Program-made: the position numbers and the translations under genes
Part shown: one piece after another, positions 55,688 through 56,037 of the stretch
How positions within the stretch are numbered: the first letter of the stretch is position 1
Layout: each line of letters begins with the position of its first letter
Assembly (NCBI RefSeq): GCF_055900595.2
Contig: NZ_CM148325.1
Length of the DNA stretch: 64,000 bases
Direction: 5' to 3' (one strand)
Notes under the pieces: model-generated
Databases searched by the model: none
What the model was told of the DNA's origin: nothing
Seen by the model: the letters and a program-made list of their open reading frames with translations, nothing else

Positions 55688-56037
55688 TTGACGTTGGGAG
55701 GCGATTAAATGGTTATACCACTCCTACGCCTTTTCCAGACGGCGTATAAGAGTGCAACATGTTGAGTTTTCCGAGCGAATGGTGCATTTTACTAACCGAG
55801 CCATTTGAAACAACCAACGCAATAAAAAAGACTGGAATAATAAGCCTGTATTTATTATTCATCGCAATCGCACTCTACGGTTTTATCCTGCAGAAATGAG
55901 ACTACTTCCAGCGGTTGTGGATTATCCCTGGACGATAGTCATAGTCTGGTGTCAGGATTCACAAATGACCTGTTACCTGACATGGATATAAACACAACAT
56001 AGAGTGCGGTAGTTAATCTGAATCATCTATTTTTCGG

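Follow-up and report, generated by a model that had tools for sequence, protein, structure and literature searches.

Novel joints formed by unequal recombination between short repeats or microhomology are a familiar product of tandem duplication in bacteria. Homology-facilitated illegitimate recombination is known from natural transformation in Acinetobacter, Pseudomonas stutzeri and Streptococcus, and integrative islands displace the 3' ends of their target genes to the far end of the element, e.g., in tRNA or tmRNA 3' duplications. Here we describe a composite scar of dead yieH and cbrC DNA (positions 55705-56033) found within a 64,000-nucleotide stretch of contig NZ_CM148325.1 (NCBI RefSeq assembly GCF_055900595.2), hereafter called the window, and compare it with these systems and with the Z-locus of Escherichia coli, the genomic island in which it lies.

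According to a published population study, the Z-locus (Z5211-Z5214) of E. coli O157:H7 is situated between phoU and yieH as an alternative to the bgl-yieIJ island, has a GC content of approximately 30%, lacks mobility functions and encodes two mutually similar open reading frames (ORFs) (Sankar et al., 2009; PMC2646131). A description of the EspY family is given in PMC6313403. A divergent allele of the Z-locus, with espY4 and a paralogue, makes up the island of the window. It occupies the site between phoU (yieK in some other genomes) and yieH, carries orthologues of the O157 genes and has a GC content of about 30%; the gene order runs pstSCAB-phoU, the AT-rich island, yieH, and then adeP, yieF and yieE. 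RefSeq strain Z0117EC0005 has an identical locus, which, together with the O157:H7 version, identifies the island as the holder of the type III secretion system (T3SS) effector EspY4. The published Z-locus and the island of the window thus share their site, gene order, low GC content, two large paralogous ORFs and the lack of mobility genes, and neither an integrase nor an att-like direct repeat was found at the scar or the island. PMC2646131 treats bgl and Z as alternatives, whereas 16 of the 5,426 complete E. coli genomes that we surveyed (PCN033 and 19KM1776 among them) have bgl-yieL-yieK in addition to the Z-locus, so that these are not strictly alternative islands. In the searched text of that paper the terms remnant, pseudogene, truncated and duplication are absent; neither the scar nor its head-to-tail joint is mentioned, nor is the fact that bgl and Z coexist in some genomes.

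The region 55705-56033 is a non-functional composite of yieH and cbrC fragments, placed between two EspY-type genes (gene A upstream and gene B downstream; Table 1). Its GC content (40-43%) is higher than that of the surrounding island DNA (25-33%), and RefSeq annotates no feature under it. All fragments lie on the minus strand, on which the order is: gene C (encoding a pentapeptide-repeat protein), an intergenic spacer, cbrC codons 1-49 joined to yieH codons 106-127, a deletion, yieH codons ~210-221, a stop codon and the first copy of an inverted repeat (hairpin 1), beyond which lies the convergent gene A. We refer to the two dead fragments as cbrC' and yieH'.

The yieH' fragment consists of two pieces. 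Behind the first copy of the inverted repeat, a spacer of 16-17 nt, a TAA triplet and the next 10 codons align without gaps to the end of the intact yieH behind the second copy. In this fixed register 19 of 33 nucleotides are identical between 55705-55737 and 60062-60094 (shuffle p = 1.9e-4, or 1.5e-3 when the stop codon is left out), and a gapped alignment of the tail with its 3' spacer gives 30/47 (64%). An earlier note, made from the letters of the window, had estimated by eye a similarity of roughly 60% behind both repeat copies, and this similarity is real. Tail differences fall 5/3/6 on the three codon positions (hand count), and collinearity with yieH ends near 55745. The second, internal piece (55751-55814) matches 60349-60412, i.e., yieH codons 106-127, at 53 of 64 positions (83%), with an alignment score of 42; shuffled sequences averaged 10.8 and reached at most 17 (z = 22.7). 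The translated comparison with YieH that the earlier note had called for gave 19/23 identical residues (106-128) by tblastn (E = 2e-10). Offsets to the intact gene are 4357 nt for the tail and 4598 nt for the internal piece, which reveals a deletion of 241 bp between them; as a result, the two pieces lie in different frames and no yieH ORF is left, just as the note had stated. Significant similarity is thus combined with a lost reading frame, and yieH' is a yieH pseudogene fragment, of which only codons 106-127 and ~210-221 survive. Within the interval given in the note (55688-55830), collinearity breaks off at about 55745, and the last 16 nt (55815-55830) are derived from cbrC.

The adjoining cbrC' fragment is independent of yieH. 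The region 55815-56033 is 71% identical over 221 nt to the corresponding DNA of E. albertii (71 nt upstream of cbrC through codon 49) and 75% identical over 111 nt to cbrC of E. coli K-12. With residues 14-49 of K-12 CbrC as a query, tblastn recovered 22/36 identities (E = 2e-11) in an alignment that spans two in-frame stop codons, and the ATG start codon has changed to GTG. In the genome of E. albertii NBRC 107761, which has no island at this site, the order is yieF, adeP, yieH, cbrC and phoU, and in K-12 it is yieH-cbrB-cbrC; cbrC therefore natively sits downstream of yieH. In the scar, the 5' part of cbrC precedes the 3' part of yieH. This order is permuted with respect to the native one, and the joint is therefore of the head-to-tail, duplication type. 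At the breakpoint, cbrC reads TATTGCGTTG, followed by ATG, and yieH reads ATGTGCGTG, followed by GTTTCT, while the product is TATTGCGTTGGTTGTTTC. The two parents share a short microhomology (TGCGTTG in cbrC and TGCGTGG in yieH, i.e., TGCGT(T/G)G), and the junction consists of TGCGTTG directly followed by GTTG.

Table 1. Coordinates of the scar, its parts and the neighbouring features in the window.
Feature	Position	Strand	Evidence or remarks
Spacer, hairpin 1 to yieH' stop	55688..55704	-	Homologous to 60046-60061; 74% over 119 nt including the repeat
yieH' tail: stop and last ~12 codons, strongly decayed	55705..55745	-	Fixed-register match; in all six alleles
Joint of the 241-bp internal yieH' deletion (codons ~128-208 gone)	55746..55750	.	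Offset change and junction sequence
yieH' internal piece, codons 106-127	55751..55814	-	83% identity, z = 22.7; tblastn; third-position bias
cbrC' pseudogene fragment, codons 1-49, two in-frame stops	55815..55962	-	tblastn; nucleotide alignments; joined head-to-tail to yieH' codon 106
Native yieH-cbrC intergenic spacer (~71 nt), upstream of cbrC'	55963..56033	-	Alignment to E. albertii locus L010, 8867-8937
Inverted repeat copy 1 (60 nt, 22-pair stem)	55628..55687	+	Pattern match; fold; stem substitutions
Inverted repeat copy 2	59985..60045	+	Pattern match; fold; stem substitutions
Gene A, upstream EspY-family effector (first paralogue)	53070..55568	+	ORF; RefSeq 'type III effector protein' at identical locus
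Gene B, espY4 orthologue (second paralogue)	57523..59925	+	ORF; positional orthologue annotated in RefSeq as 'T3SS effector EspY4'
Gene C, 395-aa pentapeptide-repeat gene	56038..57225	-	ORF; RefSeq annotation; weak Qnr-type pentapeptide matches
Intact yieH (6-phosphogluconate phosphatase)	60062..60727	-	NF007854 (NCBIfam equivalog) at 437 bits, cut-off 211; RefSeq annotation
Conserved motif upstream of gene A	52899..52958	+	Same start-codon distance as 57356-57415 upstream of gene B; 70% over 60 nt, 26-nt core 88%
phoU	51899-52642	+	Left neighbour of the island
adeP	60895-62232		Beyond yieH

The island has several features of a tandem duplication: two direct copies in register (the repeat, the spacer and the stop codon all at an offset of 4357 nt), paralogous EspY genes, a common upstream motif and a head-to-tail joint. 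The earlier note had proposed that the duplicated unit comprised a pentapeptide-repeat gene, the inverted repeat and the adjacent yieH end. Two direct copies in register and their joint agree with this proposal; the unit was larger, however: its other boundary lies in cbrC, so that gene C (395 aa), the native spacer between yieH and cbrC and the first 49 codons of cbrC belonged to it as well. As in tandem-duplication joints, a permuted junction links a distal point (cbrC codon 49) to a proximal one (yieH codon 106) at TGCGT(T/G)G. The scar departs from them in that its copies are extremely and unequally diverged, that the yieH copy bears the mark of purifying selection and that one copy is no longer complete. 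With tRNA- or tmRNA-type islands it shares an inactive extra 3' part of the neighbouring gene at the inner end, the working gene being 3'-complete; unlike these, it has no integrase and no att-like direct repeat, and the fragment, which extends back to codon 106, is joined to cbrC rather than to the end of an element.

The scar is present once per genome, always on the chromosome, in about 1,094 of the 5,426 complete E. coli genomes. Six alleles were compared, up to ~10% apart, and all have the same joints and the same deletion, which indicates that the scar arose once. The homology of its fragments, their permuted order, the shared register of the modules and the same architecture in all six alleles are direct observations. 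Two copies of the inverted repeat occur in all 1,108 repeat-bearing genomes apart from ~18 with a single copy. In the one-repeat genomes inspected (2013C-4282, locus L086, and RMDEC465, locus L085), gene A is internally truncated, and hairpin 1 and yieH' are missing; these are therefore deletion derivatives and not progenitors. A homologue of gene C with 69% identity (P0060) sits in the same deletion-type locus. The deletion variant (L086 4174-5030; L085) keeps only an internal piece of gene A, and its right endpoint is at most 2 nt from the older joint between yieH' and cbrC' (TTAA followed by CGCAAT, compared with CCAA followed by CGCAAT).

The hybrid genomes that carry both bgl and Z also show where the gene A module was placed. 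In these genomes (19KM1776, locus L087 3529-4249; also PCN033), a 3' stub of cbrC, comprising its last ~17 codons (~178-195), adjoins yieK, and the upstream region of gene A follows ~120 nt further on. Since a cbrC 3' stub lies beside yieK and a cbrC 5' fragment lies within the island, the gene A module occupies the interior of the former cbrC. The common, phoU-adjacent form of the island looks like the result of a later deletion ending in a repetitive extragenic palindromic (REP)-like sequence (window 52652-52690).

The pattern of substitutions differs sharply between the parts of the scar. Across codons 106-126, the internal yieH' piece differs from the adjacent intact yieH at 11 positions, 9 of which are third positions (9 synonymous and 2 non-synonymous differences). 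We reconstructed the ancestral remnant by parsimony from the six alleles, using yieH as an outgroup. It encodes VVSNGPVSKMHHSLGKLNMLH, with one amino acid change in 21 codons (Q116H) as opposed to 10-13 nucleotide changes; this replacement is also present in the functional YieH of Pseudescherichia vulneris. Compared with every Escherichia yieH, the ancestral remnant differs at 10-17 of 64 nt, and 7-13 of these differences are at third positions. If half of the changes are allowed to fall on the third position, the probability of at least 9 of 10 is 0.011, and 11 of 12 gives p = 0.003. The piece has the Escherichia-type Asn123, and its closest sampled allele is identical at 54/64 positions. Differences in cbrC' are spread over the first, second and third codon positions (10/12/10). 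At first and second positions together, the yieH' piece shows 1/42 differences and cbrC' 22/98 (Fisher p = 0.002). The nearly exclusive presence of synonymous change suggests that most of the divergence between the yieH' piece and the present yieH accrued while purifying selection acted on both, whereas cbrC' shows uniform neutral decay and the yieH' tail looks decayed too. The neighbours of the yieH' piece have either been dead DNA for longer or come from more divergent sources. The earlier claim of duplication followed by decay thus suits cbrC' and the yieH' tail, but not the internal yieH' piece with its mainly third-position differences.

Divergence of the genes flanking the scar points in the same direction. 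The proteins encoded by genes A and B share 33% amino acid identity over 768 aa, and the nucleotide sequences align only over the first ~860 nt (63%), while identity is 74% in the non-coding repeat regions (119 nt) and 83% in the yieH piece. Genes this divergent between flanks with 74-83% nucleotide identity do not fit one simple clock of copying in situ and decay. Between this strain and O157:H7 (L002), protein identity is 57% for A and 61% for B, with the 3' halves of both genes at 56-62% nucleotide identity, whereas gene C and the scar between the effector genes reach 91-100% identity (96% for the scar); the boundaries of divergence therefore fall at the ends of genes. The yieH of this strain is 79% identical at the nucleotide level to that of K-12, 92% to that of the B2 strain BEN2908 and 94% to that of O157, forming three identity classes, and K-12-type yieH homology ends ~10 nt before the stop codon. 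Identity of 95% or more to the yieH 3' region of this strain is found in only 18 of ~5,400 genomes. The deep split in yieH and the hypervariable EspY alleles imply that diverged haplotypes of this locus do exist.

On balance, we consider it probable, though with modest confidence, that homology-facilitated illegitimate recombination united two haplotypes of one effector-hairpin-yieH module which had diverged earlier, rather than one module being copied in situ and left to decay. Since yieH' would have diverged as a working gene, the modules are most likely haplotypes (alleles) of a single effector slot that had separated beforehand. A second module, composed of an EspY gene, its 3' hairpin and the 3' part of yieH, would have been added to the Z-locus between phoU and yieH, and the scar would be the novel joint left behind. 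This joint would have arisen by illegitimate recombination from yieH codon 105/106 to cbrC codon 49 at the shared TGCGT(T/G)G, with one homologous crossover on one side and the illegitimate one on the other, between diverged chromosomes. The described cases of homology-facilitated illegitimate recombination resemble the scar in having one illegitimate joint at a short microhomology and in the homology of diverged added and resident segments; unlike in those cases, the foreign donor is inferred here, and so is the anchoring homologous crossover. A more far-reaching proposal, which we regard as tentative, is that the EspY pair represents two anciently diverged alleles of a single slot beside yieH. 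One illegitimate crossover between diverged chromosomes would have put them in tandem and so turned a balanced polymorphism into a pair of paralogues. The hairpin and the dead yieH and cbrC DNA would then serve as flanks for an ongoing exchange of effector alleles, which are 56-85% identical in nucleotide sequence within one species.

Several points weigh against the joining of two diverged haplotypes. No haplotype with a single EspY module beside an intact yieH was found in the 5,426 E. coli genomes or the loci from 80 GTDB enterobacterial species (within 10 kb of yieH). The search for a donor of the yieH' piece gave at best 52-54/64 identities in the 80 species loci, and no yieH above ~84% in the 5,426 genomes, so that the proposed donor lineage is absent from the sampled sequences. 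The key piece is just 64 nt long, and the parsimony ancestor is biased towards its outgroup. Divergence is much greater in the yieH' tail than in the internal piece (8/22 compared with 2/42 differences at first and second positions, p = 0.002), and a single history for the whole yieH' fragment leaves this contrast unexplained. Finally, duplication in situ combined with replacement of the working yieH allele by ordinary recombination would give the same pattern.

This last scenario is the strongest rival, which we rate as possible but clearly less probable. It assumes a tandem duplication in place from cbrC codon 49 to yieH codon 106, comprising gene C, an EspY gene, the hairpin and the 3' part of yieH, after which the second copy of C and cbrC was lost, yieH' suffered its deletion and decayed, and the working yieH was exchanged for another allele. 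Such a duplication predicts exactly the head-to-tail joint that is seen and places both modules in register; yieH alleles have clearly been exchanged in E. coli, as the three identity classes (79-94%) indicate, and neutral decay is indeed seen in cbrC' and in the tail of yieH'. On the other hand, two extra steps are needed, namely the deletion of gene C, the spacer and cbrC codons 1-177, and the allele replacement. Tandem copies would be expected to show comparable neutral divergence, which is not what was found: differences at first and second positions amount to 1-2/42 in the yieH' piece and 8/22 in the tail, and the internal piece is nearly free of such change, while the adjoining cbrC' has accumulated 22%. 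Proteins A and B are 33% identical, in contrast to 74-83% in the neutral flanks, and the single-copy ancestor was not seen in the genomes searched. The joining of diverged haplotypes is the most economical account, the rival requiring more steps, and we rank it above duplication in situ.

It is improbable that a circularized foreign fragment, consisting of the gene A upstream region, gene A, the hairpin, yieH and the 5' part of adeP, was integrated into cbrC by illegitimate recombination, which would have left yieH' at one end and an adeP fragment at the opposite end. Such an event would account for the cbrC 3' stub of the 16 hybrid genomes and for a 33-nt, in-frame adeP-like piece which the same genomes carry to the left of the gene A upstream region (27/33 identical; 1 of 300 shuffles was as good). 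The adeP-like match is, however, short and marginally significant, overlaps REP-like sequence and has three changes at residues invariant in all adeP orthologues, and the 88 nt beside it match nothing. The piece lies at L087 3724-3756 and reads MGIPWHVGIGA where the invariant sequence is MGLPWQVGMGA; the piece could represent a further scar or a fortuitous match that overlaps REP-like sequence.

Retention of the scar for a function, be it that of a regulatory RNA, a terminator or a 49-codon ORF extending from cbrC' across the yieH' piece, is very improbable. The ORF (55707-55853, minus strand) is out of the cbrC frame in cbrC' and in the yieH frame through the yieH piece; its frame is open in the six alleles, and a 40-nt core is invariant. 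However, O157 has ATA in place of the start codon, L087 has a frameshift upstream, the alleles of the 49-codon frame show many non-synonymous differences, and the whole segment is deleted in ~18 genomes. Scans over the scar and the repeats detected no Rfam family, no terminator and no convincing promoter. The small-ORF reading was rejected on account of start-codon loss, frameshift and non-synonymous variation, and a present-day function of the scar is unlikely.

That the similarity to yieH is due to chance can be dismissed in view of z = 22.7 for the internal piece, the tblastn E-value of 2e-10, the tail p of 1.9e-4 and the independent cbrC fragment next to it, even though the alignment which the earlier note had proposed (55688-55900 against 60047-60300) was not significant (free local score of 11, equalled or exceeded by 56 of 500 shuffles), because the strong match lies at 60349-60412 and the tail is too short for a free local alignment.

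The inverted repeat that borders the scar was found twice in the window by exact pattern matching (0 expected), each copy lying directly 3' of an EspY-family gene. Both copies fold as a 22-pair hairpin with -27 to -30 kcal/mol and z-scores of -3.3 to -4.6 (copy 1: -27 kcal/mol, z = -3.3). Among 12 repeat copies, all stem substitutions are one-sided and keep a G-U pair on the plus strand, with six pairs affected and none broken (chance of 6/6 pair-keeping substitutions, 0.016); read on the minus strand, the same substitutions are A-C mismatches. This suggests that the repeat forms an RNA 3' stem-loop of the espY transcripts and not of yieH, a conclusion drawn from the base-pairing pattern. The hairpin was probably carried along with each EspY paralogue because the repeat belongs to the effector module. 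Its loop measures 13-14 nt, and the plus strand has no T run; in the absence of a U tract it is not a canonical intrinsic (Rho-independent) terminator, and the terminator scan reported none at either repeat. In E. coli the repeat is confined to this locus, with a maximum of two copies per genome (2,198 places in 1,108 genomes).

A short motif is common to the upstream regions of genes A (52932-52958) and B (57390-57415), about 110 nt before both start codons. The shared 21-26 nt may be a common operator. A second, inverted copy is present upstream of gene B (21-mer at 57285-57305). Beyond this motif, the spacer between phoU and gene A showed no similarity to gene C or cbrC. Gene C forms part of the promoter-proximal module.

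No homologue of EspY or gene C was detected within 10 kb of yieH in the 80 other enterobacterial species, and the listed homologues of gene C with a source name are all from E. coli (63/63). A homologue search with gene A gave only near-identical sequences among the matches listed, and no foreign context was found for A or C. A contig of 3.1 kb from a metagenome-assembled genome labelled 'Collinsella sp.' (JAIJJM010000384.1, L005) carries an E. coli-type yieH (95% amino acid identity), the inverted repeat and an espY4-like gene; it is most likely a binning contaminant.

The island itself, its position, its low GC content and the resemblance of its ORFs have already been published, and the scar is a new example of a familiar kind, a gene fragment at a joint, of modest interest and not a new system. 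It nevertheless provides the first concrete evidence of how the Z-locus, which lacks mobility genes, was built: by insertion into a yieH-cbrC backbone, with a second effector module added through an illegitimate joint of the duplication type. The cbrC' fragment shows that this backbone was like that of E. albertii. The scar also flags pseudogene DNA that is unannotated and present in roughly one in five complete E. coli genomes, draws attention to the extreme allelic divergence of the effector genes and yieH at this locus, and acts as a small internal clock by which modules copied in place can be separated from modules brought together.

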